The translations under genes and the position numbers were made by a program. A stretch of DNA of 64,000 bases. It comes from Beijerinckiaceae bacterium. GTDB taxonomy: Bacteria > Pseudomonadota > Alphaproteobacteria > Rhizobiales > Beijerinckiaceae. The stretch is from contig CBDFMN010000002.1 of assembly GCA_965249685.1 (NCBI GenBank), forward strand, positions 8,511 through 72,510, in the 5' to 3' direction. The notes below the pieces were generated by a model, which did not search any database, was not told where the DNA came from, and saw only the letters and a list, made by a program, of their open reading frames with translations. Below, in pieces: positions 27,931 through 44,237 of this stretch; position 1 is the first letter of the stretch, and every line of letters starts with the position of its first letter.

Positions 27931-28965
27931 TCAGGCCGCCTCGCGTCGCGGCGTGATCAGCTTGCGGTTGATCAGCAATTCGGCGATCTGAATCGTGTTG
28001 AGCGCCGCGCCCTTGCGCAGGTTGTCGGACACGCACCAGATCACCAGGCCGTTGTCGATCGTGGGGTCCTCGCGGATGCGCGAGATGTAGGTGGCGTCCT
28101 CGCCCGCCGCCTCGTGCGGGGTGATGTAGCCGCCGCTCTCGCGCTTGTCGATCACGAGGCATCCCGGCGCTTCGCGCAGGATGTCGCGCGCCTCGTCGGC
28201 GCTGATCGGGTTCTCGAACTCGATGTTGATCGCTTCGGAATGGCCGATGAACACCGGCACCCGCACGCAGGTCGCGACGAGCTTGATCTTGGAATCGAGG
28301 ATCTTCTTCGTCTCGACGACCATCTTCCACTCTTCCTTCGTGAACCCGTCTTCCATGAAGGCGTCGATCTCGGGAATGACGTTGAAGGCGATGCGCTTGG
28401 GAAACTTGGCGCTCTGCACGGGATCGGACACGAACACGGCGCGCGTCTGGGCGAAAAGCTCGTCCATGGCCTCTTTGCCGGCACCCGACACCGACTGATA
28501 CGTCGAGACGACCACCCGCTTGATCGTCGCGTGGTCGTGCAGCGGCTTCAGTGCCACGACGAGTTGCGCCGTCGAGCAGTTCGGGTTGGCGATGATGTTC
28601 TTCTTGGCGAAGCCCGCGATGGCGTCGGCGTTCACCTCCGGCACCACCAGCGGGACGTCCGGGTCCATCCGCCAGGTCGAGGAATTGTCGATCACGACGC
28701 AGCCCTGCGCGCCGATCTTCGGCGACCAGATCTTGGACACGGCGCCGCCGGCCGACATCAGGCAGATGTCCGTATCGCCAAAGTCATAGGTGTCGAGCAC
28801 CTTGCACTTCAGGGTCTTGTCGCCATACGAGACTTCCTTGTGGATCGAGCGCGGCGAGGCGAGCGCCACCACCTGATCGGCGGGGAACCGGCGTTCCGCG
28901 AGGATGTCCAGCATTTCGCGGCCCACGTTGCCCGTGGCCCCGACGACCGCAACCTTGAAACCCAT
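27931..28965 (-). CDS. asd: Aspartate-semialdehyde dehydrogenase
   Basis: VVGATGNVGRE, IIANPNCSTAQ, STYQSVSGAG, SDNLRKGAALN. Confidence 0.97.
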   Translation of the reverse strand: MGFKVAVVGATGNVGREMLDILAERRFPADQVVALASPRSIHKEVSYGDKTLKCKVLDTYDFGDTDICLMSAGGAVSKIWSPKIGAQGCVVIDNSSTWRMDPDVPLVVPEVNADAIAGFAKKNIIANPNCSTAQLVVALKPLHDHATIKRVVVSTYQSVSGAGKEAMDELFAQTRAVFVSDPVQSAKFPKRIAFNVIPEIDAFMEDGFTKEEWKMVVETKKILDSKIKLVATCVRVPVFIGHSEAINIEFENPISADEARDILREAPGCLVIDKRESGGYITPHEAAGEDATYISRIREDPTIDNGLVIWCVSDNLRKGAALNTIQIAELLINRKLITPRREAA

Positions 28966-29180
28966 GACTGCCCAGTCTCCGATTGGCCGCGAGGCGACCG
29001 TCGCCCAGGGGCGCATCGTGGCACCCGGGCCGATGCGGGGCGCCAGCGGGCGTCCTCCGCGTCAAGATCCCGTTGACCTTGTTTCCAACTCCTAGCGCGT
29101 CCGTAAGGAACGACTCAAGTCCTCATGCGCAGGCTGGCACGGCGCGGCGGCACGAGAGCGCCGCCCGGCGGGAGTCCTCG

Positions 29181-30035
29181 ATGAGCGACATGGCCTTTAC
29201 CACGTGGCATCGGCGCGGGGCGCGCGGCCTGCGTCCCACGGCGGGGCCGCGCGCGGCGCTGCGCCTCGTCCTGCGCCGACCGTGGCGCACGGCGGGCGTT
29301 CTGCTGGCGGCGCTCGTCGGCCTGATCGCCGCCGACGTGCTCACCGCAGCCGACGCGCCGCCTGCGCCACCTGCCGCGTCCACCGTTCTCCGGCCACTGA
29401 CCTCGCCTTGGCTCGAGGTGATCAAGCCCATCGAGATCGTCGGCCTGGAGGCGGGCGAGTTCGCCAACGCGGCGCGCAGCTACAGGGCCCGCCGCAACCT
29501 CGAGGGTGGCGGCCGCCAGGACGTGATCGCGCTCGGGACGCCTGGCGCAGGGCCTGCGCTCCGGCTCTCGCTCTATCGTCGCGGCAGCGAGGCGAGCGTG
29601 GCCGCGCCTCTCTTCGCCGACCTCGCGCGACAGGCCGCCGACGCGGGGCTTGCCGTGACCCGCAGCGGGTTGCCGGACCTGCTGCCGACGCGCTTCGGCG
29701 CCTTCGAGGTGGCGGACGTCGCCCTCGCGGCCGGGGCCGGGCGCGCGCTGCCCTGCACGGGGTTCCGCCTGGTGCTCGACGCGCCCGCTTTGACGGTCGC
29801 GGGTCTTTCCTGCGGCGGACCGGCCGCCAAGAGCCGCAATGCCCTCGGCTGCCTGCTGGAACGCCTCGACCTCGCCTCCGGTGGCAGCGACCGGGCCCTC
29901 GCCGACTTCTTCGCGGCGAGCGAGCTGAGGCGGTCGGGCACCTGCCTCGGAGCACGGCTCGCCCCCGACCAAGCCCATGCCGCATGGCTCGATGACAGGT
30001 CTGCCACACCCCGCCGGAATTCTCGCCGGCACTGA
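29181..30035 (+). CDS. Hypothetical membrane-anchored periplasmic protein
   Basis: GGAG RBS; TM segment; LPTRFGAFEVAD; several Cys. Confidence 0.65.
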   Translation: MSDMAFTTWHRRGARGLRPTAGPRAALRLVLRRPWRTAGVLLAALVGLIAADVLTAADAPPAPPAASTVLRPLTSPWLEVIKPIEIVGLEAGEFANAARSYRARRNLEGGGRQDVIALGTPGAGPALRLSLYRRGSEASVAAPLFADLARQAADAGLAVTRSGLPDLLPTRFGAFEVADVALAAGAGRALPCTGFRLVLDAPALTVAGLSCGGPAAKSRNALGCLLERLDLASGGSDRALADFFAASELRRSGTCLGARLAPDQAHAAWLDDRSATPRRNSRRH

Positions 30036-30145
30036 GGACAGGCGGCGACACGGGCGTGGCGATAAACTAAGCCGCGATGAAGGTAGCCGCGATGAACCAA
30101 GCGTGGCTCAAGCGATTATACGAGCAACATAAAGGGATCCCGCCG

Positions 30146-30544
30146 ATGCGAACTACGGTTGTCTCGATACTCGCCCTCGCCACCGTCGCGTCGCTCGCCG
30201 GAGCCTCCGGCGTCTCCGCCAAGCCGCGCCATCGTCAGGTGACCCCCGTGCTGGACGACGGCCAGACCCACGAGCTGCCGCTGACGGTCAACCGGCGCAG
30301 CTTCCTCGATCCAGGCCCGGTCGCCCCCGTCGGCACCGGCCAGAACTACGTCTCGGCCAACACCATCTTCAACCGCACCGAAGATCGTATCCGCGATCCC
30401 GACAGATTCGGCAACGACGTGATCGTCGGGCAGCCCTACGTGCCCGGTCGCACGGTGCCGGTGGCCGAATTCGCGACCGGTCCGAACATCGGGGACCTCT
30501 ATTCCGGACCCATCTTCGGCTACCAGCCGGAGCAGCTGCGCTAA
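30146..30544 (+). CDS. Secreted hypothetical protein
   Basis: Signal peptide MRTTVVSILALATVASLAGASGVSA; LTVNRRSFLDPG. Confidence 0.7.
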   Translation: MRTTVVSILALATVASLAGASGVSAKPRHRQVTPVLDDGQTHELPLTVNRRSFLDPGPVAPVGTGQNYVSANTIFNRTEDRIRDPDRFGNDVIVGQPYVPGRTVPVAEFATGPNIGDLYSGPIFGYQPEQLR

Positions 30545-30577: not shown

Positions 30578-31933
30578 ATGCAGCGCCCCCTCTGCTACGA
30601 CGTGACCCGCCTTCTCACGCGGGTCCTTAACGCCACGCCGAATGGGATCGACCGGATCGACCACAGGCTGGCGACGCATTTCCTGTCTCAGGAGGGCGCC
30701 CCGCGGCTGGGGCTGACGTCGACGGGGTTCGGCGCACGTCTGATGAACGGGAATGCCGCCGCCGAAGCCGTGGCCGGCATCGCCGCCCATTGGAGCGAGG
30801 CTCCGGCGGGGCGGGGCTGGAGCGTCGGGCACTCGACAGACCCTCTCCCCGCAGACCCTGTCTACGAGTGGGTCGTCGCGCGCCTGACGGGCGCGGCAGC
30901 TCCCGGCGGCACCTGGCCCGGTGAAGCCATGCCGGCGAGGCGGTCGACGTTGCGGGCCGACGTGACGGAGGGCTTGCGGTGGGTCGGACGCCATGGCGTG
31001 CCCTTGCTGCGCCGTCCGACGCGCGAGCTGCCCCGCGGCAGTGTCTATTTTAACGCAAGCCAGTTTCCACTGTGGGTCGAAGCGAGCTTCGCCTGGCTGA
31101 CGGCGCGGCGCGACGTCAAAGCCGCCTTCTTTATCCACGACCTGCTGCCGATCAGCATGCCGGAATATTTCCGCACCGCGGAGTACGCGCGCCACCTCAG
31201 ACGTATGGCCAATTTGGCGCGTTTCGCGACGGCCGCGGTGGTCACCACGCAGACCGTCGCCGACGACCTCCGCGCCCACCTGCATGGGCTTGGCCGCACG
31301 GATCTGGCCGTGTTCGTCGCGCCCACCCCGGTCGCGCCGATCTTCTCCGAGCCGAGGCAGGTCGAGGCCCGCCTCAACGACCACCCGTTCTTCGTCCTGT
31401 GCAGCACCATCGAGCCGCGCAAGAACCACCTGATGATCCTGGCCGCCTGGCGCGACCTTGTGCGCCGCCATGGCGCGGCGGCCCCCAAGCTCGTGCTGGT
31501 AGGGACGCGGGGGTGGAAATACGAGCTGATCGTCGACCTGCTGGACCGCAGCCCGCCCCTGCGCGACCACGTGATCGCTGTGCGCGGGCTCTCGACGCCG
31601 GGCCTCAAGCGCCTGATGGACAACGCGCGGGCGGTGCTCATGCCGAGTTTCGCGGAGGGCTATGGCCTGCCCGTGCACGAAGCGCTGGCGGCGGGCGTCC
31701 CGGTACTGGCCTCCGACATCCCGGTGTTCCGCGAGATCGGCGCGCGCGGCCTCACGCTCCTGTCGCCGCTGAACGGCGAGGCGTGGCTGGAGGCGGCGCA
31801 CCGGCTCTCCCAGACGGAGCGGCCCGAACCCTCCGCAGCCGAGCGGCGTGGACCGCTGGGCGAAGAGGTCGGGGCCGGCGCGGGATGGTCGGACTATTTC
31901 GGCAGGCTGGACAGGTTCGTCGGCGGGCTTTGA
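30578..31933 (+). CDS. GT4-type (GT-B) glycosyltransferase
   Basis: HDLLPISMPEYF, STIEPRKNH, PSFAEGYGLPVHEALAAGVPVLASDIPVFRE. Confidence 0.92.
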   Translation: MQRPLCYDVTRLLTRVLNATPNGIDRIDHRLATHFLSQEGAPRLGLTSTGFGARLMNGNAAAEAVAGIAAHWSEAPAGRGWSVGHSTDPLPADPVYEWVVARLTGAAAPGGTWPGEAMPARRSTLRADVTEGLRWVGRHGVPLLRRPTRELPRGSVYFNASQFPLWVEASFAWLTARRDVKAAFFIHDLLPISMPEYFRTAEYARHLRRMANLARFATAAVVTTQTVADDLRAHLHGLGRTDLAVFVAPTPVAPIFSEPRQVEARLNDHPFFVLCSTIEPRKNHLMILAAWRDLVRRHGAAAPKLVLVGTRGWKYELIVDLLDRSPPLRDHVIAVRGLSTPGLKRLMDNARAVLMPSFAEGYGLPVHEALAAGVPVLASDIPVFREIGARGLTLLSPLNGEAWLEAAHRLSQTERPEPSAAERRGPLGEEVGAGAGWSDYFGRLDRFVGGL

Positions 31934-32619
31934 CCGGAACGCGCGGGGTCGCGCAGGGTGCGGATGCCAACGGCCACCCGCACGACATAGATCGACACGA
32001 ACACGACGCCCGCGAAGACCAACACGCCATCGTAGAGCGAGAAGACCTGTCCGCCCACGCTGAAGCGTACGGGTCCGAACACCACCATGGCCGTGTTAAT
32101 GGCAATGAGGCAAAGCCGCAGCTCCGTCGGCCCCAGACCGAGGAAGGAGAGCTGGAAAACGCCCGACAGATGGTTGTTGATGAACACGTACATGCACAGG
32201 AAGAAATAGCCGACGAGCGCGAACAGGGCGGCGTCCATCCGGATGAACGGTGCGAGGCCGAAGCCGACCATGATCATGAAGTTACACAGGGCGTCGACCG
32301 TGTGGTCGAGGAAGTAGCCGTAGATCGGCCGCTCGATCCCACGGAAGCGGGCGAGGCTGCCGTCGAGCGAATCGCCGAACCAGTGAACGACGAGGCCGGC
32401 CGAGGCGAGCCAGAGGTAGGCGCGGTCGTGCTGGCTTGCCGCCTCCGCCACGAGCACGAGCGTGGCGCCGGCGACGCCCAGAGCCGTCAGCCGGTCGGGC
32501 GTGACCCAGGCCGGCAAGCGGGCGGCGAGCCACGTCAGCAGCCTGCGCTCGCTTTGCGCCACCACGTTGGCTTGGATGCGCTTGACGCGGAACCGTCCGC
32601 GTTCGTCCATTGGCGTCAT
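31894..32619 (-). CDS. CDP-alcohol phosphatidyltransferase family protein
   Basis: VTPDRLT; signature DSLDGSLAR...YGYFLDHTVD; multiple TMs. Confidence 0.92.
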   Translation of the reverse strand: MTPMDERGRFRVKRIQANVVAQSERRLLTWLAARLPAWVTPDRLTALGVAGATLVLVAEAASQHDRAYLWLASAGLVVHWFGDSLDGSLARFRGIERPIYGYFLDHTVDALCNFMIMVGFGLAPFIRMDAALFALVGYFFLCMYVFINNHLSGVFQLSFLGLGPTELRLCLIAINTAMVVFGPVRFSVGGQVFSLYDGVLVFAGVVFVSIYVVRVAVGIRTLRDPARSGQSPPTNLSSLPK

Positions 32620-32928
32620 GCAGGTCTCCGATGCGAGGGCGGTCCCCTTGTGCGTCGCGCCCCATCGCCTGATCAAGGCTGATGTCGGCAAATCAGGCCC
32701 TGCCGCTCGCGCTGGTCTCAATCTTGCCCCAAAGCCGTCCGGCGCGGGGCACGACTAAGTCTTTCCCCTGTTGCCGAACTGCCATGGTTTATGCGGACGC
32801 CTTCGCGTAAGGTTACGGCTTGGTAATGTAAGACTGCCAGACGATTGGGTTGCCGTTCGGTGCGAGCGGTTGCCCCACGCGGGTGTATGCGGCGTCCCGG
32901 CGCCGCCCGAGCAAAGGCAAAGAGCGCG

Positions 32929-34281
32929 ATGAAGCACGGCGCAGGTCTGCAGCACGACACGAGGGGAACGCTCCAGGACATCATCGCGCGCCGGATGGAC
33001 GCGGAGCGGAAATCGGCGAGAGCCAGCGCTCCCATGCCGAACCCCTTCGCCGCCATGACGGACTTCTCCACGCTGCCGGGCATGCAGGAGATCAAGATCC
33101 AGCGATCGGCGGCGGGCGTCATGGGCCTGCAGGACCCCTACTTTCGGGTTCACGACGAGCGCGCCGGCGCCACCACGCTGATCGACGGCAAGCGCTACAC
33201 CAATTTCTCCTCCTACGACTACCTCGGCCTCAACGGCCATCCCGACGTCCAGGCGGCCGCCGCGGGCGCCATCGGCCATTACGGCACCTCATGCTCGGCA
33301 AGCCGGCTCGTCGCCGGCGAGCGGCCGATCCACCGCGACCTGGAGCGCGCGCTCGCCGTCCATTACGGCCAGGACGACGCGGTCGTGTTCGTCAGCGGCC
33401 ACGGGACGAACGTCTCGGCCATCGGCGCATTGCTCGGCCCGCGCGACCTCGTGATCCATGACAGCCTGGCCCACAACAGCATCGTGCTGGGCGCCACATT
33501 GTCCGGCGCCACCCGCCGCTCGTTCGCCCACAACGACGTGGTGGCGCTCGACCGCGTGCTCGCCTCCTGCCGGGCGCAATACGACCGTGTGCTCGTGGTG
33601 GCAGAGGGCCTGTACAGCATGGACGGCGACTGCGCCGATCTGTCCGCGTTGATCGAGGTCAAGACCCGGCACGGTGCTTGGCTGATGATCGACGAGGCGC
33701 ATGGCCTCGGCGTGCTTGGCGAGCGCGGGATGGGCTCCTTCGAGATGGTCGGCGCCAAGCCCGACGATGTGGACATCTGGATGGGGACGATGTCGAAGAC
33801 GCTGTCGGGTTGCGGCGGCTACATCGCCGGCAACGCGGTGCTCGTCGAATACCTGAAGTGCATGTCGGGTGGCTTCGTCTACAGCGTCGGCCTGCCGCCG
33901 CCGATGGCGGCCGCCTCGTTGGCCGCGCTCGACCTGCTCCACCGCGAACCGGAACGCGTCGCGACGCTTCGGCGCAACGGCGCCCTGTTCTGGACGCAGG
34001 CGCGGGCGCGCCGGCTCGATGTCGGCTCCAGCGAGGGCCACGCGATCGTCCCGATCGTCACGCATAGTTCGCTGGTGGCCGTCGGCCTCAGCCAGAAACT
34101 GTTCGAGCGCGGCATCAACGTGCAGCCGATCATCCATCCCGCCGTCCCCGAGCGCAACGCGCGGTTGCGGTTCTTCCTCTCCTCCGAGCATACGGCCGAG
34201 CAGATCGTCACGACGGTGAACGCTGTGGCGGAATGCCTCGAGGTGATCGGCGCCGGCGTTCCGAGTCCGGCCCTCGCCTGA
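32929..34281 (+). CDS. PLP-dependent alpha-oxoamine synthase (RkpG/WcbT-like; BioF/SPT superfamily)
   Basis: NFSSYDYLGL, HNSI, EGLYSMDGD, DEAHGLG, GTMSKT (PLP Lys). Confidence 0.9.
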   Translation: MKHGAGLQHDTRGTLQDIIARRMDAERKSARASAPMPNPFAAMTDFSTLPGMQEIKIQRSAAGVMGLQDPYFRVHDERAGATTLIDGKRYTNFSSYDYLGLNGHPDVQAAAAGAIGHYGTSCSASRLVAGERPIHRDLERALAVHYGQDDAVVFVSGHGTNVSAIGALLGPRDLVIHDSLAHNSIVLGATLSGATRRSFAHNDVVALDRVLASCRAQYDRVLVVAEGLYSMDGDCADLSALIEVKTRHGAWLMIDEAHGLGVLGERGMGSFEMVGAKPDDVDIWMGTMSKTLSGCGGYIAGNAVLVEYLKCMSGGFVYSVGLPPPMAAASLAALDLLHREPERVATLRRNGALFWTQARARRLDVGSSEGHAIVPIVTHSSLVAVGLSQKLFERGINVQPIIHPAVPERNARLRFFLSSEHTAEQIVTTVNAVAECLEVIGAGVPSPALA

Positions 34282-34450
34282 CGTCGCCGCCTGAACCGGC
34301 GGTCGATGAGCCACAAAGCCGCAGACTGCTAATTGCGGAGCGCACGGCGCGGGGCCTCGGGTTGACATCGCCCGTCGAAAGACCCGTAGGGTCGGCGCGA
34401 AAAAGCCCGGCCCTGCACGTCGAGCGAGGGGTCTGACCAAAGGTTCTCCC

Positions 34451-37400
34451 TTGGCTCTAGCCGCGAAACAACGACTGGCTCCTTTGACACAAACGACAGA
34501 CATTGCCGTCATCGGCCGATCCTGCCGTCTACCCGGCGCGCCCTCCGTCGCCGACCTGTGGACCCTGCTTGCATCCGGCACCTGCGCGGTGTCGCGCGTG
34601 CCCGACGACCGCTGGTCGATGGACCGCATGGCCCACCCTCGCGGCGCGGAGCGTGGCAAAAGCTACACCTGGGCCGCCGGCACGCTCGCCGACGTCTGGG
34701 GCTTCGACCCAGCCGCCTTCGGCCTCTCGCCCCGCGAGGCGGAGCAGATGGACCCGCAGCAGCGCCTGCTGCTCGAACTCACCTGGGAGGCGCTGGAGGA
34801 TGCGGGGCTAAGGCCCTCGTCGATCGCCGGCAGCGACGCCGGCGTGTTCGTCGGCGCCTCCGCGCTCGACTACGGCAACCTGCGCATCATCGATTCTGCG
34901 GCGGGCGACGCCTACCTGATGACGGGCAACACGCTCTCGATCATCGCCAATCGCATCTCCTACATCTTCGACCTGCACGGCCCGAGCTTCACCGTCGACA
35001 CGGCCTGCTCCTCGGCTCTGGTGGCGCTCAACGAGGCGATCGTCAGCCTGCGCAGCGGGCGCATCGACACCGCCATCGTCGGCGGCGTCAACATTCTCGC
35101 AAGCCCCTTCAACTTCATCGGCTTCTCGCAGGCGGCCATGCTGTCGCGAATCGGGTTGTGCCAGGCGTTCGCCGCCGGCGCCGACGGCTACGTGCGCGCC
35201 GAGGGCGGCGTCGCGCTGGTCCTGCGCACGCGCGAGGCGGCGGAACGCGCCGGCGACCACGTCCACGGCTTCATCGTCGGCTCGGACGTCAACTCGGACG
35301 GTCGGACCAACGGCATCTCCCTGCCCTCCAAGGTCTACCAGGCCCGCCTTCTCGAGACGCTCTACCTCAAGCAGGGGATCGACCCGGCCACGCTGGCCTT
35401 CGTCGAGGCGCACGGCACCGGCACCCGCGTCGGCGACCCGATCGAGGCGACCGCCATCGGCGAGACGCTGGCGCGCAAACGCCGCATGCCGCTGCTGATC
35501 GGCTCCATCAAGACCAATATCGGGCATATGGAGGCGGCGTCCGGCCTCGGCGGCGTGCTCAAGGCGATGCTCGCGCTCGAGCACGACCAGCTGCCCCCCT
35601 CGCTGCACAGCGGCGAGCTCAACCCCGACATCGACTTCGCCGCGCTCAACCTGCAGGTGGCGCGCGCGTTGACGCCGTTGGCCGCCGCCGCCCCGGGCGA
35701 GCGGCGTATCGCCGGCGTGAACTCCTTCGGCTTCGGCGGCACCAACGCCCACGTCATCCTGGCGGACGGGCCGAAGGCCGCGGCGCCTGCACCAGCGACG
35801 GGCGCGGCTGCGCTACCCTCCTACCTCGTCATCTCGGCGCACAGCCGCGCGGCGCTCGGTGCGCTGGTCGCCGATTATGCGGCGCGCCTCGACGAGGCGG
35901 ACGATGCCGAGGCCGCGGCCATTCTCGCCGCGGCGGCGCATCGGCGCGAGCGTCTGGCCCATCGCGTCGTGGTGCCGGTCGGTGCGCGCAAGGATCTCGT
36001 GGCGGTGCTCGACCGCCTGGGTGACGCCGAGCAGGACGTGACAGGCGCGGCACGCGGCACGGCGATCGACCGCGAGGCTCCGGTCGCCGCGGTGTTCTCC
36101 GGCAACGGCGCCCAGTTCGTCGGCATGGGCGTCGCGGCCTACGCTCAGAACGCGTGGTTTCGCGCGCACCTCGACCTGGTCTCCGAAGAGTTCGCGACGC
36201 TGGCCGGCTGGTCCATTGTGGAGACGCTCCATGATCCCGGCCTGAGCGCGAAGCTGGAGCTCACCCAGATCGCCCAGCCGCTGCTCTACGCGGTGCAGGC
36301 GGCGGCCTATCAGGCGCTGCTCGCCGGCGGTCTGAAGCCCACGGTCATCATTGGCCACAGCGTCGGCGAAGTCGCCGCCGCGGAGGCCGCCGGGATCCTC
36401 GACCGCGCCGGCGCGATCAAGACGATCTTGGCCCGCAGCCTGCACCAGGAGCTGTCGTTCGGCCTTGGCGGGATGGCCGTGGTGATCGGCTCGCAGGAGG
36501 CGACGGAACAGATCATCGCGGCGCTGCCGAGCCTGGAGATCGCCGCCTACAACAGCCCGCGTGCCTTCACCGTCTCGGGCAGCCAGGAGCATATCGCGAA
36601 GCTGTCGGGCGTCGCGCGCGCGGCCAAGGCGCGCATTCGCAAGCTCGATCTCGCCTACCCCTTCCACAACGCCCTCATGGCGCCCGTCGAGCGGCCGCTG
36701 CTGCGCAGCCTCGCCGACCTCAAGCCTGTGGGCTCCTCGCTGCCGTTCATCTCCACCGTGACGGGTGGCCGGCTCGACGGCCCGGAACTCGACGCGCACT
36801 ATTGGTGGCGCAACGTGCGCGAGCCCGTCCGCTTCTCCCAGGCGGTCGGCGCCGCGGTGCAGGCAGGCGCCCGCATCTTCATCGAGGTCGGTCCCACCGC
36901 CTCGCTCCTGTCGCACATCAACGATTGCGTGGACGAGCGCACCGCGACCATCGCGACCCTCTGCGCCCTGGACAAGAAGGACCGGGGCGACGACCCGATC
37001 GCGGCCGCGCTGGCCATGGCGCTGGCGCGAGGCGCGAGCGTCGACGACGCCAAGGCCTTCGGGCCCGCACCTCGCGGCCCCGTCGCCCTGCCGCTCTACC
37101 CCTGGCAGCGCAAGAGCTACCGGCTACCCGACTCGGCGGAATCGCCGGGACTGACCCGGTCGGGCGCCTGGCACCCCCTAATCGGTTCCCGCCTGAGCGC
37201 GGACCGAACCGAGTGGCACTCCACGCTCGACACGGTGCTCCACCCCTCGCTCGCCGACCATTGCGTCGACGGCCGCGCCATCCTGCCCGGTGCAGCCTTC
37301 GCCGAAATGGCCCTGGCTGTGGCGCGCGATTGGCTCGGCACGGACGAGGCGACCGTCACAGACCTCGAGATCACCAGCCCGATGATCCTGACGGCGGACG

Positions 37401-40400
37401 CCTCGCGCGAGGTCGTCTGCCGGCTCTCCCCGCATATCAACCACCTGGAGATCGTCAGTCGGCCCCGCCTCGGGCAGACGCCCTGGCAGACGCACGCGAC
37501 CGCCAAGGTCGTCCGGGACACGGCGGCGGTCATCGTGCCCGGGCCGGACGACCACCAGCCGGCCCCGGGCACGCACGTGATCACCGGGCCGGAGATCTAC
37601 GCCATGGCCGCGCGCGCCGGCCTGCAATACGGCCCGACGTTCCAGAAGCTCGCGACCGCCGTCGCCGGGCGGCCGGACCGGATCACCCTCGACCTCACCA
37701 AGGAGGAGGCGGACCCCGCCTACGGGATCGACCCCGCGCGGATGGATGCCTGTTTCCACGCGCTGGTGCTGATCTTCTCCAGCCTGCGCGATGCGGTGCA
37801 CGGCACGGCCTACATCCCCGTGCGGTTCGGCGAGATCATGCTGCGGCGGCCGGGCGCGACCTTCACCAAGGCGCGCATCGACGTCCTGCGTCGCGACGAA
37901 CGCATCATCATCGCCAACTTCTTCCTCACGGACGAGGCGGGCGACGTCATCGTCTTCGTGCGCGAGGCGCGCTTCCAAGCCATCCGCACCTCGCGCGGCG
38001 CCGAAGCCGGCAGGCAGATGGTCGTGCAGAAGTCCGTGCTGGCGAGCGAACCCACGGCGGCCCGCGTCGAGCGTCCGCTTGCGCTGGCCGCCTTCCGCCG
38101 CGCGATCGCCCCGGCGGCGCAGGCGCGCGACGCCATGGCCGCGGACTTCGTCCTGCTTGAAGGCTGGGCGACGGCGGTGGCGCTGGGTGCCGCCCGCGAC
38201 CTCGCGACAGCCAGTTTCATCGACGCCGACGCACTCGTCGCGAGCGGTCGCCTCCCCGCGCGCGCAAAACCCTGGCTCGAGGACCTCCTCGTCTCGCTGG
38301 ACCGCTCCGGCCTGTCGCACCGCGACAAGCTCGGCCGCCACGTCGATCCCGACATCGCGCTGCCCGATCCCGACGAGATCCTGCGCACGATCGCCGCCGA
38401 GCACCAGAACCTCGGCGCCGAGATGCTGGTGGCGGCGAGCGTCGACGCGGCCATCGAGGCGCTGACCGCCGGTGATATCGAGACCTTCCTGCGGCCGCTC
38501 TCGACCAAGTCGATCGATGGTTGGGAACTGGGCGGCAGCCAAGCGCACGCCGCGGCCACGAGCCTCATCGACCTGCTCAAGCGCTCTCAGGCCGGCTGGC
38601 CGAAGGACCGCGCGATGCGCGTGCTGCAGGTCGGTTACGGCCCGCTCACGGGGTTGGCGGCCAACCTCGCGGACGCGACCGAAGCGCGCCTCACGGTGTT
38701 CGATCCCAACCGCCGCCGCCTGGAGCGCGCCCGGCTGGCTCTCGCGGGCCGCGGCGACGTCGGCTTCGTCGACAAGGCGGCGGACCTCCCCGCCGCCGAG
38801 TTCGACTTCGTCATCGCCGCGCACGTCCTCTACCGGCACAAGCGCGACGCGTCCTTCTGGTCCGGGCTCAGGCGGGCGATGGCGCAGGGCGCGATCTTCG
38901 CCGCGATCGAGCCGGTGCCCTCCTTCTTCCGCGACCTCGTGCTCGGCCTGGACGCGCGGTTGACCGACGAGGCGGATGCCGCCGGCTTCGACGGGCTCTC
39001 CGTGACCGAGGCCGACTGGCTGGAAACGATGCAGGTGATCGGCCTCGGCGACGCGGAGGTGGTCACCACCGAAACCGCCAACGGCGGAGCGCTGCTCCTG
39101 ACGGCGCAGGTCGAGGCGGAACGCCGGCACTGGAGCGGCACGGGCGACGCGCTGATCATCGGCGCCGGCGACGCGCGCGGCACGGAGACGACCTCGGCCT
39201 TCGCGACGCTGCTCGCCTCGTCGGGGCTGCACGTGTCGCTCGCCCTGGACAGCGAGCTGTCGGCGGAGGCGCTGGCCGAGGCACCGGAGACGATCGTGTT
39301 CTTCGCGGTGGCGAGCGACGAGCACGTAACGCCGGTCAAGGGCCTACTCGACCAGTGCATGCGCCTGAAGCGGCTGGCCGACGGGATCGGCACGCGCAAG
39401 AGCACGCTGTGGCTGGTGACGGCCGGCGCGATGGGCTCGACCAATGCAACGCGCGCGGGCGATGTCGCCGCCGGGGTCTGGGCCTTCTCCCGCACGCTCG
39501 CCAACGAGGTGCCGACGCTCGACGTGCGCCGCGTCGACCTCGCCGCCGACCTGCGGCCGGACCTGCTGGCCGAGCGGCTGCGCGACCTCGTGCTCTCCAA
39601 AACCGTCGAGACGGAGATCCTGCTCGGCCCGAGCGTCACGCGGGTCGTGCGCTTCGAGGCGGTGGCGGCGCAGGACCGTGGACAGGCGCGTCGGGCGGAC
39701 GCCGCCAGGCTCGCGCGCGGCGAAGGCTCGGGCATCGATCGCATCCACTGGGAAGCCATGCCGCGCCACGCGCCGGGGCCGAACGACGTCGAGGTCGCCG
39801 TAGAGGCGATCGGGCTCAACTTCCGCGACGTGATGTTCGGCCTCGGCCTGCTGCCGGAGGACATCCTCGAGCACGGGTTCGCCGGCCCGACGCTGGGCCT
39901 CGAATGCGCGGGGCGCATCGAGCGCGTCGGCGCCGCCGTCAAGGGCCTCAAGCCGGGCGACCGCGTCATCGCCTTCGCCAAGAACGCGTTCGCCACCCAC
40001 GTGACGACGCCCGCCGCCGTGGTCGCGCCGATCCCCAACGGCATCGCGTCGGAGATGGCGGCGACGATCCCGGTCGCGTTCCTCACCGCCTACCACGCCC
40101 TGATGCTGTGCGCCCGGCTGAAGCCGATGGAATGGGTGCTGATCCACGGCGGCGCCGGCGGCGTCGGCCTGGCGGCGATCCAGATCGCACGCTGGCGCGG
40201 CGCCCGGGTGATCGCCACCGCGGGTTCTCCGGAGAAACGCGCGCTGCTCGCCGCCCTCGGCGCGGAACACGTGTTCGACAGCCGCTCCGGCGCCTTCGTG
40301 GAGGACATCCGGCGGGTGACCGGCGAGGGCGTCGGCGTCGTGCTCAACAGCCTGTCGGGCGAGGCGATGGAACGCAGCATCGGCGTGCTGCGGCCGTTCG

Positions 40401-41944
40401 GCCGGTTCGTCGAATTGGGCAAGCGCGACTATGTCGCCAACACCCATGTCGGGTTGCGGCCGTTCCGCCGCAACCTCTCCTATTTCGGCGTCGACCTCGA
40501 CCAGTTGCTGATCGACGAGCCCACCACGAGCAAGCTGCTGATGCGCTCCGTACTCGGTCTCTTCGCCAAGGGGGCGCTGACGCCCTTGCCCTATCGCGCT
40601 TTCGAGGCGGACGAGACGGTCGAGGCGTTTCGGCTGATGCAGCAGTCCGGCCATATCGGCAAGCTGGTGGTGAAGCCACCGGCGCCGGGCACGGTCGTCG
40701 CGCGGCAGCGGCGCGGCTTCCAAGTCTCGTCCGACAAAATCCACCTCGTCACCGGCGGCTTCGGCGGCTTCGGCCTGGAGGCGGCGCGTTGGCTGGCGGA
40801 CAAGGGCGCCCGCACCCTGCTGCTGGTCGGCCGCAGTGGCGCGGCGAGCCCGGCTGCGCGCGAGGCGCTGGCGACGATGGCCGCCGCCGGCGTGCGCGTG
40901 CGTGCCGAGGCGCTCGACATCGCCGATAAGGCCGCGGTGCAGCGGCTGTTCGCCCGCTTCGGCAAGGACCTGCCGGTGCTGGGCGGCATCATCCACGCCG
41001 CCATGGTGCTCGACGACGCGATGCTCCCCAACGTCACGGCGGAGCGGTTCGAGAAGGTGCTCCGACCGAAGGTGGCCGGGGCCGACCACCTCGACCAGCT
41101 CACGCGGGGGCTGTCGCTCGACTATTTCGTCCTGTTCTCGTCGGCGACGACGCTGATCGGCAATCCCGGCCAGGCCGCCTATGTCGCGGCGAACGGCTAT
41201 CTGGAGGGCCTTGCCCGCCGTCGCCGCGCGGCTGGACTGCCGGCGCTGGCCATCGGCTGGGGCGCGATCGAGGACGTCGGCGTGCTCGCCCGCTCGGAGG
41301 GCACGCGCGAGGCCCTGGCCAATCGCGTCGGCATCAAGGGCATGCTGGCCCAGGACGCGCTCCGCCAGATGGGCGAGGCCTTGAGCGCCCCGGCCTCGGC
41401 CGACGATGCGGTCGTGGTCATCGCGCCGATGAACTGGTCCGCGGCGCGCCAGCACCTCGCGGTCCTGCGCGGCCCTTCCTACGCCAAGCTGACGAGCGGC
41501 GGCGAGACGAAGGCGAGCGAGGCGAGCAAGATCGACATCGCCGCCCTCGTGGCGCAGAGCGCGCCGGAGGAGGCACGCAAGGTCGTCAGCGGGCTCATCG
41601 TCGAGGAGATCGCGCGCGTGCTGCGCCTGCCGCAGGAGGATATCGCCCGCACTACGGCGTTGGGGGAGATCGGCCTCGACTCGCTGATGGCGGTCGAGCT
41701 GGCACTCGGGCTGGAGGAGCGGTTCGCCCTGAAGGCGCCCCTGTCGGCGACAGCCAGCAGCTTCTCCGTCAACGAACTGGCCGATCACGTGATAGGCTTG
41801 GCGACCGGCACGTTGAGCGGTGACGAGGCGGTGACGCGCAGCATGGTCGAGCGCCACCTGGGGCCATCCGCCGACCTGGGAACGATGGATGCCGCGGCGG
41901 CGCTCCTCAAGAAGGGCCAGCACGCGAAGCCGGTCGTAAGCTGA
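34451..41944 (+). CDS. Highly reducing type I PKS, KS-AT-DH-(pseudo-MT)-ER-KR-ACP, RkpA/WcbR-like
   Basis: KS DTACSS/HGTGT/NIGHME; AT GHSVG and YPFH; DH HCVDGRAILP and DACFH; ER HGGAGGVG; KR GGFGGFG/LDD/YVAAN; ACP GLDSLM; no TE motif. Confidence 0.95.
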   Translation: MALAAKQRLAPLTQTTDIAVIGRSCRLPGAPSVADLWTLLASGTCAVSRVPDDRWSMDRMAHPRGAERGKSYTWAAGTLADVWGFDPAAFGLSPREAEQMDPQQRLLLELTWEALEDAGLRPSSIAGSDAGVFVGASALDYGNLRIIDSAAGDAYLMTGNTLSIIANRISYIFDLHGPSFTVDTACSSALVALNEAIVSLRSGRIDTAIVGGVNILASPFNFIGFSQAAMLSRIGLCQAFAAGADGYVRAEGGVALVLRTREAAERAGDHVHGFIVGSDVNSDGRTNGISLPSKVYQARLLETLYLKQGIDPATLAFVEAHGTGTRVGDPIEATAIGETLARKRRMPLLIGSIKTNIGHMEAASGLGGVLKAMLALEHDQLPPSLHSGELNPDIDFAALNLQVARALTPLAAAAPGERRIAGVNSFGFGGTNAHVILADGPKAAAPAPATGAAALPSYLVISAHSRAALGALVADYAARLDEADDAEAAAILAAAAHRRERLAHRVVVPVGARKDLVAVLDRLGDAEQDVTGAARGTAIDREAPVAAVFSGNGAQFVGMGVAAYAQNAWFRAHLDLVSEEFATLAGWSIVETLHDPGLSAKLELTQIAQPLLYAVQAAAYQALLAGGLKPTVIIGHSVGEVAAAEAAGILDRAGAIKTILARSLHQELSFGLGGMAVVIGSQEATEQIIAALPSLEIAAYNSPRAFTVSGSQEHIAKLSGVARAAKARIRKLDLAYPFHNALMAPVERPLLRSLADLKPVGSSLPFISTVTGGRLDGPELDAHYWWRNVREPVRFSQAVGAAVQAGARIFIEVGPTASLLSHINDCVDERTATIATLCALDKKDRGDDPIAAALAMALARGASVDDAKAFGPAPRGPVALPLYPWQRKSYRLPDSAESPGLTRSGAWHPLIGSRLSADRTEWHSTLDTVLHPSLADHCVDGRAILPGAAFAEMALAVARDWLGTDEATVTDLEITSPMILTADASREVVCRLSPHINHLEIVSRPRLGQTPWQTHATAKVVRDTAAVIVPGPDDHQPAPGTHVITGPEIYAMAARAGLQYGPTFQKLATAVAGRPDRITLDLTKEEADPAYGIDPARMDACFHALVLIFSSLRDAVHGTAYIPVRFGEIMLRRPGATFTKARIDVLRRDERIIIANFFLTDEAGDVIVFVREARFQAIRTSRGAEAGRQMVVQKSVLASEPTAARVERPLALAAFRRAIAPAAQARDAMAADFVLLEGWATAVALGAARDLATASFIDADALVASGRLPARAKPWLEDLLVSLDRSGLSHRDKLGRHVDPDIALPDPDEILRTIAAEHQNLGAEMLVAASVDAAIEALTAGDIETFLRPLSTKSIDGWELGGSQAHAAATSLIDLLKRSQAGWPKDRAMRVLQVGYGPLTGLAANLADATEARLTVFDPNRRRLERARLALAGRGDVGFVDKAADLPAAEFDFVIAAHVLYRHKRDASFWSGLRRAMAQGAIFAAIEPVPSFFRDLVLGLDARLTDEADAAGFDGLSVTEADWLETMQVIGLGDAEVVTTETANGGALLLTAQVEAERRHWSGTGDALIIGAGDARGTETTSAFATLLASSGLHVSLALDSELSAEALAEAPETIVFFAVASDEHVTPVKGLLDQCMRLKRLADGIGTRKSTLWLVTAGAMGSTNATRAGDVAAGVWAFSRTLANEVPTLDVRRVDLAADLRPDLLAERLRDLVLSKTVETEILLGPSVTRVVRFEAVAAQDRGQARRADAARLARGEGSGIDRIHWEAMPRHAPGPNDVEVAVEAIGLNFRDVMFGLGLLPEDILEHGFAGPTLGLECAGRIERVGAAVKGLKPGDRVIAFAKNAFATHVTTPAAVVAPIPNGIASEMAATIPVAFLTAYHALMLCARLKPMEWVLIHGGAGGVGLAAIQIARWRGARVIATAGSPEKRALLAALGAEHVFDSRSGAFVEDIRRVTGEGVGVVLNSLSGEAMERSIGVLRPFGRFVELGKRDYVANTHVGLRPFRRNLSYFGVDLDQLLIDEPTTSKLLMRSVLGLFAKGALTPLPYRAFEADETVEAFRLMQQSGHIGKLVVKPPAPGTVVARQRRGFQVSSDKIHLVTGGFGGFGLEAARWLADKGARTLLLVGRSGAASPAAREALATMAAAGVRVRAEALDIADKAAVQRLFARFGKDLPVLGGIIHAAMVLDDAMLPNVTAERFEKVLRPKVAGADHLDQLTRGLSLDYFVLFSSATTLIGNPGQAAYVAANGYLEGLARRRRAAGLPALAIGWGAIEDVGVLARSEGTREALANRVGIKGMLAQDALRQMGEALSAPASADDAVVVIAPMNWSAARQHLAVLRGPSYAKLTSGGETKASEASKIDIAALVAQSAPEEARKVVSGLIVEEIARVLRLPQEDIARTTALGEIGLDSLMAVELALGLEERFALKAPLSATASSFSVNELADHVIGLATGTLSGDEAVTRSMVERHLGPSADLGTMDAAAALLKKGQHAKPVVS

Positions 41945-41966: not shown

Positions 41967-44237
41967 CTACGCCGCTGGCGCCGATGCCGCGTGGCCGCCG
42001 AGCACCTGGTCCAGCTTCGTCTGCAACTGGGCGCCGGTGAACGGCTTGGGCAGGAGATGCACGCCCTTGTGCAGACGGCCCTGGTGCGTCAGCACGTCGT
42101 TGGCGTAGCCGCTGACGAAGAGCACGCGCAGATGAGGCTGGATCTGCTTGGCGCGCAGCGCCAGTTCGTAGCCGTTCAGGCCGGGCAGGCCGACATCCGT
42201 GAACAGCAGGTCGAACCGGCCCGTCTCGCGCAGCGCGGCTAAGGCCTCCTCGGCATTGGCGGCGGCCACCGTGACGAAGCCGAGGTCCTGCATCATCTCC
42301 AGGGAATAGGCGAGGACGACCGCATTGTCTTCGACGATGAGGACGCGCAGGCCGGCGCGCGGCGGGTTGGCCGAGATCTCGGCTCGCGCCGCCGCAGGGG
42401 CGACCAGCGCCTTGGCGCAAGGCAGGTAGATTCCCACGCGCGTGCCGGCGTCGACGGCGCTGTCGATCTCGATATGCCCGCCGCTCTGCTTGACGAACCC
42501 GTAGACTTGGCTCAGCCCCAGCCCCGTACCCTGGCCGATCGGCTTGGTGGTGAAGAACGGCTCGAAGACGCGTTCGAGCACGGCGGCGGGAATGCCGCAG
42601 CCGGAGTCGCTGATCTCGATCAGCACGAAGCGGCCGTTCGCGAGGTCGGGATTGCGCCTGCCGACATCCTCGTCCGACACGACGTTGCGCGCGGCGATCT
42701 TCAAGGTACCCCGCCCAGCCATCGCGTCGCGGGCGTTGATCGCGATGTTGAGGATCGCGTTGTCGAGCTGGTTGGGATCGACGTCGGCGTGGTGGAGATC
42801 GTCGTCGAGGCGCAATTCCATCGTGATGTTCTCGCCCAACGTCCGCTCCAGCAGGTCCGACATCGACCGCACGAGCCGGCCGATGTCGGTGTCGGCGGGG
42901 TTCAGCGGCTGACGACGAGAAAAGGCGAGGAGGCGTTGGGTGAGCACGGCGCCGCGCTGCGCCGCGTCGAGCGCGTTTTGCGTCCAGCGCTGGAAACGCG
43001 GACCGTGTTCACGCCCATGCCGCTGCAGCAGTTCGAGGTTGCCGAGGACCGCCGTCAGCAGGTTGTTGAAGTCGTGGGCGACGCCGCCTGTGAGTTGTCC
43101 GATCGAATCGAGCTTCTGCGCCTGGCGCAACTGGTCTTCGGCGACGTCGCGGGCGGCGACGGCCGCGCCGCGCTCGGCCTGCGCTTGGTTCAGCGCCTGC
43201 AGGGCACGCACCTGCCGCAGCAGCAGCCAGGCGACGACGAGGACGGCACCGGCGCAAAACAGGGCGCCGAGCACGATGACCGCGGCGGTGCGGCGCCAAT
43301 CCCTGAGGATATCGTCCAACGTTCCCGTCACGTTGATGACGAGCGGAAAGTGCCGCGCGGCGATGGTCGCGACGATCCGCGGCGTCCCGTCGATCGCGGG
43401 CCATATCGAATAGGTCGTGGAATGGTCGCTGCGGACGATCCCGGAAAACGACTTGATGGCGAACCTGCGGCCGGTCCCGTTCGGCAAGGCGGGGTAGCGC
43501 GCCATGAGGATACCGTCGCTGCGCCACAGGCTGACCGCGCCGCCGTTGCCCACGTCGAGCGATCGGTAGAGATCCTCGAAATAGGCGAGGTCGATCGCGG
43601 CGGTGATGACGCCGAGGAACTCGCCCGAAGAACTGTTGATGCGGCGCGCGAGGTAGGTCGTCCATCGGCCGTCCGCAAGGTTGCGGACCGGCTCGCTGAC
43701 GATCAAGGCGTCCGGCTTGCCGGCCTTGGCATCCTGAAAATAGTCGCGGCTCGCGAGGTTGAAGGTCGGCGGCGGGAAGGAGCGCGAGGTCACGACCGGG
43801 ATACCGTCAGACCCGAGCACGGTGATGGCCGACACCTGCGGCACGCCGGCCAGGCGCGAGCGCATCGCCTCGTGGGTCTCGCGCTTGGATTGCGTCGCCC
43901 GAAGGTCCTCGGCCGTCGTGATCTTGTCTCCGGCGATCTTCTCCTGGAAGCTGCGCAGGATGAGGTCGGCGCCCTGAACCGCCCGCTCCGTTTCCTCGCC
44001 GAGGAGCAGATCAAGCGTCCTGAGGGTCTGCTCCGCCTGGTCGATCTCGTGGGCGCGTAGGCGCAGGGCGGAGGCCAGCCCGATCGCGACGATCACGACG
44101 ATGGCGAGCGCGGCCCCCGCGACGATCCAGCGTTTGGGCTGGTCGGAGAGGCTGAGGTTCGGAAACGCGGCGCCGGGCGAGAACCTCGAGGCCCGGCCCG
44201 GCTTTGACCCGGCGCCCGCCCTCGGCATGTTCAGCAA
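41967..44237 (-). CDS. Hybrid sensor histidine kinase/response regulator with Cache-type periplasmic domain
   Basis: Two TMs; H-box GGVAHDFNNLL; NAILNIAINARDAM; DSGCG; GTGLGL; REC LLFTDVGLPG. Confidence 0.93.
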   Translation of the reverse strand: MLNMPRAGAGSKPGRASRFSPGAAFPNLSLSDQPKRWIVAGAALAIVVIVAIGLASALRLRAHEIDQAEQTLRTLDLLLGEETERAVQGADLILRSFQEKIAGDKITTAEDLRATQSKRETHEAMRSRLAGVPQVSAITVLGSDGIPVVTSRSFPPPTFNLASRDYFQDAKAGKPDALIVSEPVRNLADGRWTTYLARRINSSSGEFLGVITAAIDLAYFEDLYRSLDVGNGGAVSLWRSDGILMARYPALPNGTGRRFAIKSFSGIVRSDHSTTYSIWPAIDGTPRIVATIAARHFPLVINVTGTLDDILRDWRRTAAVIVLGALFCAGAVLVVAWLLLRQVRALQALNQAQAERGAAVAARDVAEDQLRQAQKLDSIGQLTGGVAHDFNNLLTAVLGNLELLQRHGREHGPRFQRWTQNALDAAQRGAVLTQRLLAFSRRQPLNPADTDIGRLVRSMSDLLERTLGENITMELRLDDDLHHADVDPNQLDNAILNIAINARDAMAGRGTLKIAARNVVSDEDVGRRNPDLANGRFVLIEISDSGCGIPAAVLERVFEPFFTTKPIGQGTGLGLSQVYGFVKQSGGHIEIDSAVDAGTRVGIYLPCAKALVAPAAARAEISANPPRAGLRVLIVEDNAVVLAYSLEMMQDLGFVTVAAANAEEALAALRETGRFDLLFTDVGLPGLNGYELALRAKQIQPHLRVLFVSGYANDVLTHQGRLHKGVHLLPKPFTGAQLQTKLDQVLGGHAASAPAA

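Follow-up and report, generated by a model that had tools for sequence, protein, structure and literature searches.

Organization of the locus

The genes described here lie in a 64,000-nucleotide stretch of the genome of a Beijerinckiaceae bacterium (assembly GCA_965249685.1, contig CBDFMN010000002.1, positions 8,511 to 72,510 of the forward strand), which is called the window throughout. Coordinates are those of the window unless a contig (C) or locus (L) number is given; other genomes carry G numbers. Four genes encode a family 4 glycosyltransferase (GT4), a CDP-alcohol phosphotransferase, an α-oxoamine synthase (AOS) and a type I polyketide synthase (PKS), and they form a candidate pathway for a sphingolipid with a PKS-derived chain. 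Genes were called by third-position GC (the window has about 69% GC) and checked against Pfam and NCBIfam. All four are intact at the coordinates given in a first-pass annotation made from the sequence alone, and its strands, orientations and 169-bp spacer between the AOS and PKS genes hold as well. The phosphotransferase and AOS genes are divergent, with 310 bp between them. The same annotation had remarked that three usual partners of such a PKS, a short-chain dehydrogenase/reductase (SDR), a sulfatase-like gene and KpsC/KpsS, are not adjacent; Pfam and NCBIfam indeed find none of them in the cluster, from asd to the hybrid histidine kinase gene. The four genes are:

30578..31933, + strand, GT4 (GT-B) glycosyltransferase, 451 aa; PF00534, PF13692 and PF20706
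31894..32619, − strand, CDP-alcohol phosphotransferase, 241 aa, about 6 transmembrane (TM) helices; a longer open reading frame (ORF) reaches 32721
32929..34281, + strand, AOS, 450 aa; the longest ORF starts at 32845
34451..41944, + strand, type I PKS of the SgaA/RkpA/WcbR type, 2497 aa

The GT4 and phosphotransferase genes are convergent and their 3′ ends overlap by 40 nt (31894–31933). The overlap is exactly 40 nt in loci L102, L103 and L104 too, and only 6 nt in Methylocella silvestris. Such a conserved antisense overlap could couple the expression of the two genes.

The polyketide synthase and the α-oxoamine synthase

The PKS is composed of the following domains:

~34496–35764, + strand, KS, motifs DTACSS, HGTGT and NIGH
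~36092–36991, + strand, AT, motif GHSVG
~37172–37987, + strand, DH, motif HxxxGxxxxP
~38621–38902, + strand, degenerate MT-like spacer; S-adenosylmethionine motif I is degenerate (VLQVGYGPLTG)
~39776–40675, + strand, ER, motif HGGAGGVG
~40736–41272, + strand, KR, LDD and catalytic Y
~41597–41791, + strand, ACP, motif GLDSL

The order KS-AT-DH-pseudoMT-ER-KR-ACP, with intact catalytic motifs, describes a single, fully reducing module. Neither the Pfam domains nor motif inspection reveal a thioesterase in the protein, and both agree with the first description of it as a reducing type I PKS lacking this domain. The PKS is 71% identical to that of L007 and 38–53% identical to PKSs located beside SgaB-type AOSs in Methylobacterium, Bordetella, Halomonas and Nitrosomonas.

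The AOS matches PF00155 with 146.6 bits and has its pyridoxal phosphate lysine within the motif GTMSK. The characterized system of this kind is that of Pseudomonas fluorescens MYb115, where C24–C28 sphinganines depend on the iterative PKS SgaA together with the AOS SgaB, purified PfSgaB is a serine-specific palmitoyltransferase in vitro, and the SDR SgaC is the proposed ketoreductase (Peters et al. 2025, PMC12134224). The sgaA and sgaB knockouts also lose +154 Da lipids, assigned as phosphoglycerol sphingolipids (PMC12134224). MYb115 is the sole strain for which serine-dependent formation of C24–C28 sphinganines has been demonstrated. The window AOS is 55% identical over 413 residues to PfSgaB, whose sequence was taken from the supplement of that paper (PMC12134224). 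In a maximum-likelihood tree the window AOS, PfSgaB and the PKS-linked AOSs form one clade with support 97/97. The best solved relatives are the bacterial serine palmitoyltransferases (SPTs) 3a2b and 8guh. Homologues of the AOS are abundant at 53–87% identity and stand beside a homologous PKS almost without exception, in 80 loci of alpha-, beta- and gammaproteobacteria. From this similarity the AOS is predicted to be a serine palmitoyltransferase acting on the PKS-bound acyl chain.

A quite different assignment would make the AOS the biotin enzyme BioF (or Kbl or HemA) and the PKS an unrelated fatty-acid-like synthase. TIGR00858 (bioF) is the top NCBIfam match of the AOS, and many database homologues are automatically named 8-amino-7-oxononanoate synthase. 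The match reaches 348 bits, however, and the cut-off is 426; a paralog at C3:~0.999 Mb scores 414.5 bits with the same model and is the better BioF candidate, and a third paralog is clearly HemA (632 bits). The three other AOS paralogs of the genome (BioF-like, HemA and AOS2) all fall outside the SgaB clade of the tree, and the branches dividing the window AOS from the BioF-like and HemA paralogs are long and supported. Identity of 55% to an assayed SPT and the nearly constant PKS neighbor also speak against a biotin enzyme. On its sub-cut-off score, the better-scoring paralog and its separate clade, the AOS was rejected as BioF of this genome, and the assignment as a whole is extremely improbable. 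The first-pass annotation had left room for a true BioF, and the phylogeny it proposed closes that room.

By sequence, the PKS and AOS are members of the SgaA/SgaB family, which takes in RkpA/RkpG and WcbR/WcbT. Burkholderia, Bordetella, Methylobacterium and Sinorhizobium predominate among 6101 tabulated homologous clusters (PMC12134224); these are the genera of the WcbR/WcbT and RkpA/RkpG loci. The central idea of the first-pass annotation, that the PKS chain is released by the AOS as a long-chain base, is therefore strongly supported by homology to PfSgaA and PfSgaB, and is of an already published kind. The concept of a PKS-derived bacterial sphingolipid was published in 2025, with Methylocella and Beijerinckiaceae already among the listed homologues (PMC12134224), and the core system is not new.

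The CDP-alcohol phosphotransferase and the GT4

The phosphotransferase matches PF01066 with 28.8 bits against a cut-off of 22. Its signature D117-x2-D-G-x2-A-R-x9-G-x3-D-x3-D is intact and covers residues 117–143 of the long ORF. The single sequence matches CEPT1/CHPT1 in the PDB with E = 1.6e-10, and a profile of the 26-member family finds human CEPT1 and vertebrate CHPT1 at 3.8e-12 and the mycobacterial phosphatidylinositol-phosphate (PIP) synthase at 0.74. An AlphaFold (AF2) model has a mean pLDDT (predicted local distance difference test) of 84.9; in Foldseek it matches only CDP-alcohol phosphotransferases, CEPT1 first, with a TM-score normalised to the query (TMq) of up to 0.66. Among NCBIfam models, the archaetidylinositol-phosphate (AIP) synthase model NF040950 gives 41 bits against a cut-off of 180, and the PIP synthase model NF045883 30 bits against 170. 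Whether judged by sequence, by profile or by fold, no solved structure is closer than CEPT1 and CHPT1, although identity is only about 20% and the window enzyme, with about 240 aa and about 6 TM helices, is much more compact than the eukaryotic enzymes with about 400 aa and 10. Because CEPT1 is nearest in all three respects, sequence and model favour a CEPT-type reaction over one of the PIP synthase type. We propose for it the CEPT1/CHPT1 mechanism, in which the donor is a soluble CDP-alcohol and the acceptor a lipid hydroxyl. Neither a lipid kinase nor a lipid cytidylyltransferase is required for this, and the locus has no linked gene for either. The insect ceramide-phosphoethanolamine synthase (CPES) uses ceramide as the acceptor.

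An inositol-phosphate head group, as in glycosylinositol phosphorylceramides (GIPCs) or phosphatidylinositol mannosides (PIMs), was considered and rejected as a general explanation. The genome has two genes for myo-inositol-1-phosphate synthase (MIPS), neither with lipid neighbors. MIPS is absent in seven of nine phosphotransferase-positive genomes, complete ones included; the count takes the window genome and the eight phosphotransferase-positive genomes among 13 searched. Since MIPS does not track the phosphotransferase, an inositol head group is not supported, and de novo inositol phosphate is not a general substrate. The candidate alcohols are phosphoglycerol, as in MYb115, or phosphoethanolamine/phosphocholine. 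One of the MIPS genes is unlinked to the lipid locus and comes first in an apparent operon at C3:3250200–3257700 (L109 9224–16690) with genes for HD-like, methyltransferase, GFO/IDH/MocA oxidoreductase, metallo-β-lactamase (MBL)-fold, YcaO and xylose-isomerase-like TIM barrel proteins. This is an unusual inositol-derived small-molecule cluster; the second MIPS gene is at C3:2241 kb.

The GT4 matches PF00534 with 62.7 bits and no NCBIfam equivalog model at its cut-off. Its only PDB sequence match is a weak one to the MshA-type enzyme 7qsg. It is a candidate lipid or head-group glycosyltransferase.

Conservation of the linkage

The phosphotransferase occurs with an SgaB-type AOS in L005–L009, L017, L018, L032, L098, L102–L105 and L124, and the GT4 gene adjoins it in L005, L007, L017, L032, L097, L102–L105, L110 and L113. 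Among these loci are those of Beijerinckiaceae-type metagenome-assembled genomes (MAGs) (L007, L102–L104), Methylocella silvestris (L005), a Methylobacteriaceae MAG (L017) and Stellaceae (L032), and further L018, genome G370 (L098) and a metagenome contig (L124). The order asd, two hypothetical genes, GT4, phosphotransferase, AOS, PKS is kept in L007, L102, L103 and L104, where the phosphotransferase is 59–79% identical. Elsewhere the same genes are rearranged and joined by others, among them a gene for a 379-aa protein and a GT21 gene (ceramide-glucosyltransferase family):

L005, Methylocella silvestris: methyltransferase, AOS, 379-aa protein, GT21, phosphotransferase, GT4, PKS
L032, Stellaceae MAG: GT4, phosphotransferase, PKS, AOS, SDR
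L018: phosphotransferase, PKS, AOS, SDR
L098, genome G370: PKS, AOS, SDR, phosphotransferase, UDP-glucose-dehydrogenase-like gene
L124, metagenome contig: GT21, AOS, 379-aa protein, SDR, phosphotransferase, Wza, PKS
L105: GT4, phosphotransferase, GT21, AOS, 379-aa protein

In relatives the AOS is followed by the 379-aa protein, which has a tandem-GNAT fold, and by the GT21. The four-gene set thus co-occurs elsewhere in several alphaproteobacterial lineages and in varied order, which settles favorably the synteny question raised in the first-pass annotation. In an even draw of 400 other alphaproteobacterial genomes, 11 have an SgaB-type AOS, four have the phosphotransferase sub-family and two have both. 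About 0.11 would be expected by chance (hypergeometric P 0.004, kinship among the genomes ignored). The annotation had assigned the phosphotransferase and GT4 as head-group enzymes. Family membership and a conserved linkage that tolerates rearrangement support this still putative assignment.

Membrane lipid or glycan anchor

At least three kinds of downstream module accompany the PKS–AOS core in relatives. In the first, an SDR and KpsC/KpsS come right after the AOS (Methylobacterium, L023; Bordetella, L061). The second, in Halomonas, has an LpxL-like acyltransferase, a P450 and CysNC. The third is the phosphotransferase and GT4, with or without the tandem-GNAT protein and GT21. In Halomonas urumqiensis (L076 11229–16443) the genes after the PKS–AOS pair encode the LpxL-like acyltransferase, the cytochrome P450 and a sulfate adenylyltransferase/APS kinase fusion. 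Such a gene content suggests that the PKS-derived sphingolipid has a variant here with N- or O-acylation, hydroxylation and sulfation.

The first module bears on the final role of the lipid. The PKS/AOS product might be the anchor or primer of an exported polysaccharide, with a phospho-linker from the phosphotransferase and a first sugar from the GT4 in place of KpsS/KpsC, and with export by an ABC transporter and Wza encoded elsewhere. Such a scheme differs from a free lipid in final role and not in chemistry. It draws on the closest paralogous systems, those of L023 and L061, with their SDR and KpsC/KpsS, and on the description of wcb and rkp clusters as capsule loci. In the window genome, by contrast, PF05159 (KpsC/KpsS) has no match anywhere, and the genome is 100% complete. 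For this reason we rejected the idea that another part of the genome holds an ordinary K-antigen or Rkp cluster, and the explanation of the PKS as an ordinary K-antigen anchor, which the first-pass annotation had kept in reserve, fails with it. A Wza/Poly_export gene lies directly beside the phosphotransferase sub-clade in L006, L096, L097, L111, L113 and L124, an ABC transporter adjoins the phosphotransferase in M. silvestris and G041, and the window genome encodes two homologues of Wza, together with an ABC ATPase that shares 62% identity with its Methylocella counterpart. Yet no ABC transporter or Wza/KpsD export gene is found in or beside the window cluster, and the homologous ABC transporter of this genome sits in an rml/GT2/Wzz-like cluster of the O-antigen type, which needs no sphingolipid anchor. 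Altogether we regard an anchor role as rather unlikely. The O-antigen-type cluster (C3:1716000–1731000, L099) encodes a C-methyltransferase, RmlA/B/D, a second nucleotidyltransferase, GT2, Wzz-like proteins and the ABC ATPase. The ABC transporter beside the Methylocella cluster was rejected as evidence of a dedicated lipid exporter, its homologue here being in this cluster.

A second lipid locus

A second sphingolipid-type locus is found at C3:2122000–2131000 (L087 7293–16003). It encodes AOS2, which is SPT-like and 41% identical to the window AOS, and a 379-aa protein. One strand also has a sphingolipid-delta4-desaturase-like gene and a GT2/GT21 gene; the other has an SDR, a MaoC dehydratase, a KS and an ACP. 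The locus looks like a type II version of the PKS route, with dissociated enzymes. The best match in the genome to cluster-linked SDRs is C3:2127967–2128638, with 41% identity and 157 bits.

The 379-aa protein has a 28%-identical homologue directly 3′ of the PKS-linked AOS in Methylocella-type loci. It gives a weak Pfam GNAT match and no NCBIfam match, and the database names are all 'hypothetical'. In the model (pLDDT 79.6) it folds as a tandem GNAT, in the manner of MshD and glucosamine N-acetyltransferase. On this modelled fold it is a candidate ceramide-synthase-type N-acyltransferase; the name bCerS is not adopted. For the two steps that the window lacks, ketone reduction and N-acylation, the second locus supplies the best candidates. 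Of the canonical bacterial ceramide pathway (Spt-bCerS-CerR), the window has neither an Spt with its own ACP nor a GNAT-type ceramide synthase nor a reductase. The organism probably runs two sphingoid-base routes, which may share the reductase and the N-acyltransferase. The first-pass annotation had pictured the lipid as made without a standard SPT and ACP; the genome as such does have an SPT-type route, in a second AOS locus that includes an ACP, KS, dehydratase, SDR, tandem-GNAT protein, sphingolipid-desaturase-like protein and GT2.

Proposed pathway

We propose that the locus encodes an SgaAB-type pathway for a PKS-derived sphingolipid, with a head-group module unlike those described so far, and give this reading a probability of about 0.6. 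By homology, the single-module PKS would iterate like a fatty-acid synthase (FAS) and, on the ACP that it carries itself, assemble a very long, saturated acyl chain. The AOS, judged by its 55% identity to PfSgaB, would condense the acyl thioester with L-serine, with loss of CO2, to a 3-keto very-long-chain sphingoid base. The ketone may be reduced by an SDR encoded elsewhere, the best candidate being that at C3:2.128 Mb, and the tandem-GNAT N-acyltransferase of the second locus could turn the base into a ceramide. The phosphotransferase, from its linkage and family, would then draw on a soluble CDP-alcohol and attach its phospho-alcohol at the C1 hydroxyl of either base or ceramide, in parallel to CEPT1 on diacylglycerol or the insect ceramide-phosphoethanolamine synthase on ceramide. 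The GT4 may add a sugar to this head group, or directly to a second lipid pool. The expected product is an outer-membrane sphingolipid with a phospho- and/or glyco-head group. The conserved linkage makes the head-group assignment plausible; the identity of the head group and the final role, free membrane lipid or glycan anchor, are conjectural.

Several observations weigh against this reading. No SgaC/RkpH-type SDR is present between asd and the histidine kinase gene. Sequence sets CEPT1 clearly ahead of other CDP-alcohol phosphotransferases, and fold only slightly so. For the supply of a soluble CDP-alcohol, Pfam profile searches show no obvious cytidylyltransferase in the genome: PF01467 has two small matches only, presumably CoaD and NadD; PF01633 has one choline-kinase-family match of unclear role; and PF12804 (NTP-transferase) matches occur in sugar-nucleotide and other contexts. 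The same kind of profile search does not find a CDP-choline/CDP-ethanolamine pathway in the genome. Nine of the 11 SgaB-positive genomes in the sample lack the phosphotransferase, and two of the four phosphotransferase-positive ones (G041 and G146) have no SgaB-type AOS, so the phosphotransferase is not strictly dependent on the PKS lipid. In a metagenome scan seeded with the phosphotransferase, only members of at least about 55% identity sit with GT4, AOS, PKS, SDR or Wza; distant members (38–54% identity) are mostly in other lipid contexts, beside LpxL/PatA-like acyltransferases, GtrA-like proteins and canonical SPT clusters. The linkage is therefore a property of one sub-clade within a broader family of lipid head-group enzymes.

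G041 and G146 can also be read in favor of a glycerolipid product. The phosphotransferase and GT4 would then make a PI/PIM-like glycolipid or a phosphatidyl-X glycoside unrelated to the PKS lipid, and their adjacency would merely reflect a common envelope-lipid neighborhood. In keeping with this, an LpxL/PatA-like acyltransferase lies beside distant phosphotransferase members in 12 metagenome loci, the best NCBIfam matches are the AIP and PIP synthases, and the sole PDB sequence match of the GT4 is an inositol-phosphate glycosyltransferase. The 12-locus arrangement resembles the actinobacterial pgsA1-patA-pimA order. The AIP and PIP scores, however, are far under their cut-offs, and the PIP synthase is a poor match to the family profile. 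The distribution of MIPS does not fit an inositol lipid, and the linkage to SgaB-type AOS and PKS outlasts rearrangement in several lineages and is statistically enriched. A glycerolipid product is improbable on this balance. In the 12 loci (L134, L136, L144, L150, L152, L153 and others) the acyltransferase gene precedes a phosphotransferase gene of 38–50% identity. In L134, L144 and L165 a distant tandem-GNAT relative follows the phosphotransferase, in a recurrent three-gene lipid module.

Within the proposed sphingolipid pathway a bolder view can be taken, which we offer tentatively and consider somewhat doubtful. The phosphotransferase might be the missing compact CEPT-like head-group enzyme for a very-long-chain base or ceramide, the first bacterial counterpart of insect CPES, and, together with GT4 and the Wza and ABC proteins of relatives, might serve sphingolipid-anchored surface glycans independent of KpsC/KpsS. 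If the phosphotransferase acts on the sphingoid base, CEPT-type chemistry extends to bacterial sphingolipids; if it does not, the locus adds one more ordinary member to the SgaAB family. It was only in 2025 that bacteria were shown to have PKS-derived sphingolipids, and homologous PKS–AOS pairs number in the thousands, among them those of Burkholderia, Bordetella and rhizobial capsule loci. The phosphotransferase and GT4 are a compact, conserved candidate pair for the head-group steps.

Surroundings of the cluster

The genes flanking the cluster are housekeeping genes (asd, hybrid histidine kinase, FabH and CorA), and the GC content of the cluster equals that of its surroundings. The nearest neighbors are:

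27931–29016, − strand, asd; left boundary of the interval
28983..30035, + strand, conserved hypothetical, conserved part ~29391–30032; between asd and the small secreted protein
30146..30544, + strand, small protein, secreted or membrane-anchored, 132 aa counted from the conserved start; immediately upstream of GT4
41967–44237, − strand, hybrid histidine kinase; right boundary of the interval

The first hypothetical (28983..30035) has 49–73% identity with its counterparts beside the L102, L103 and L104 clusters in tblastn, a conservation that amounts to family-level synteny only. The small protein (30146..30544) has a hydrophobic N-terminal segment. Its homologues hold the same position in L007 and L102–L104 and are absent in the L005, L032 and L105 loci; it is kept only in close relatives and is probably not core to the pathway. 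Neither ORF has a Pfam match. Both hypotheticals of 28983–30544 have N-terminal hydrophobic segments and are absent in more distant loci with the four-gene set. Contig C1 (37.5 kb) matches C2:1–31337, equal to window 1–22827, with 99.2% identity over 31.4 kb. This match is an assembly redundancy or a strain variant, and spans the first third of the window and not the lipid cluster.

Comparison with known systems

The conserved tie of PKS and AOS to a CDP-alcohol phosphotransferase and GT4 has not been described previously. Peters et al. name no head-group enzyme and mention neither CDP nor phosphotransferases (PMC12134224), and we found no literature beyond that paper linking PKS sphingolipids to capsule anchors or CDP-alcohol enzymes.

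The closest system is PfSgaA/B/C. Both have an iterative, single-module reducing PKS with no thioesterase and an adjacent AOS of the same clade (55% identity), and both are predicted to yield one class of product, namely very-long-chain sphinganine and phospho-sphingolipids. Here, in contrast, the AOS gene precedes the PKS gene, the locus has no SgaC-type SDR, and the phosphotransferase and GT4 are conserved neighbors. The Rkp-1 region of Sinorhizobium meliloti (rkpA, rkpG-J) and wcbR/wcbT of Burkholderia pseudomallei have the same kind of PKS and AOS pair, and Sinorhizobium and Burkholderia are counted among the SgaAB homologues (PMC12134224). They differ in that the present genome has no KpsC/KpsS, the present cluster has no exporter, SDR or sulfatase-like gene, and the head-group enzymes here come from different families.

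The fungal FUM1/FUM8 and sphingofungin pairs, cited as analogues by Peters et al. (PMC12134224), follow the same logic: the chain of a reducing PKS is off-loaded by a pyridoxal phosphate-dependent AOS to give a sphingoid-like amino-ketone. The fungal products are tailored toxins, made with alanine or other amino acids and with no phospho- or glyco-head-group module.

For the head group, the nearest parallel is Caulobacter crescentus, in which genetics shows that ceramide di-phosphoglycerate depends on CpgA (CC_1159), a protein containing a CDP-alcohol phosphotransferase domain. The first-pass annotation had taken as established that CDP-alcohol phosphotransferases add head groups to bacterial sphingolipids. 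The basis for this is the CpgA genetics and a proposed Caulobacter scheme, not an enzyme assay. The Caulobacter locus (Spt, bCerS, CerR, CpgA, Sgt) resembles the window locus, by description, in using a protein of this domain family for an anionic phospho-head-group, and its Sgt glycosyltransferases make alternative glyco-sphingolipids. The Caulobacter chain comes from the FAS/ACP pool via a canonical Spt, whereas here it is predicted to come from the PKS. A ceramide kinase and nucleotidyltransferases are further parts of the Caulobacter scheme, in contrast to the window locus, where none are linked.

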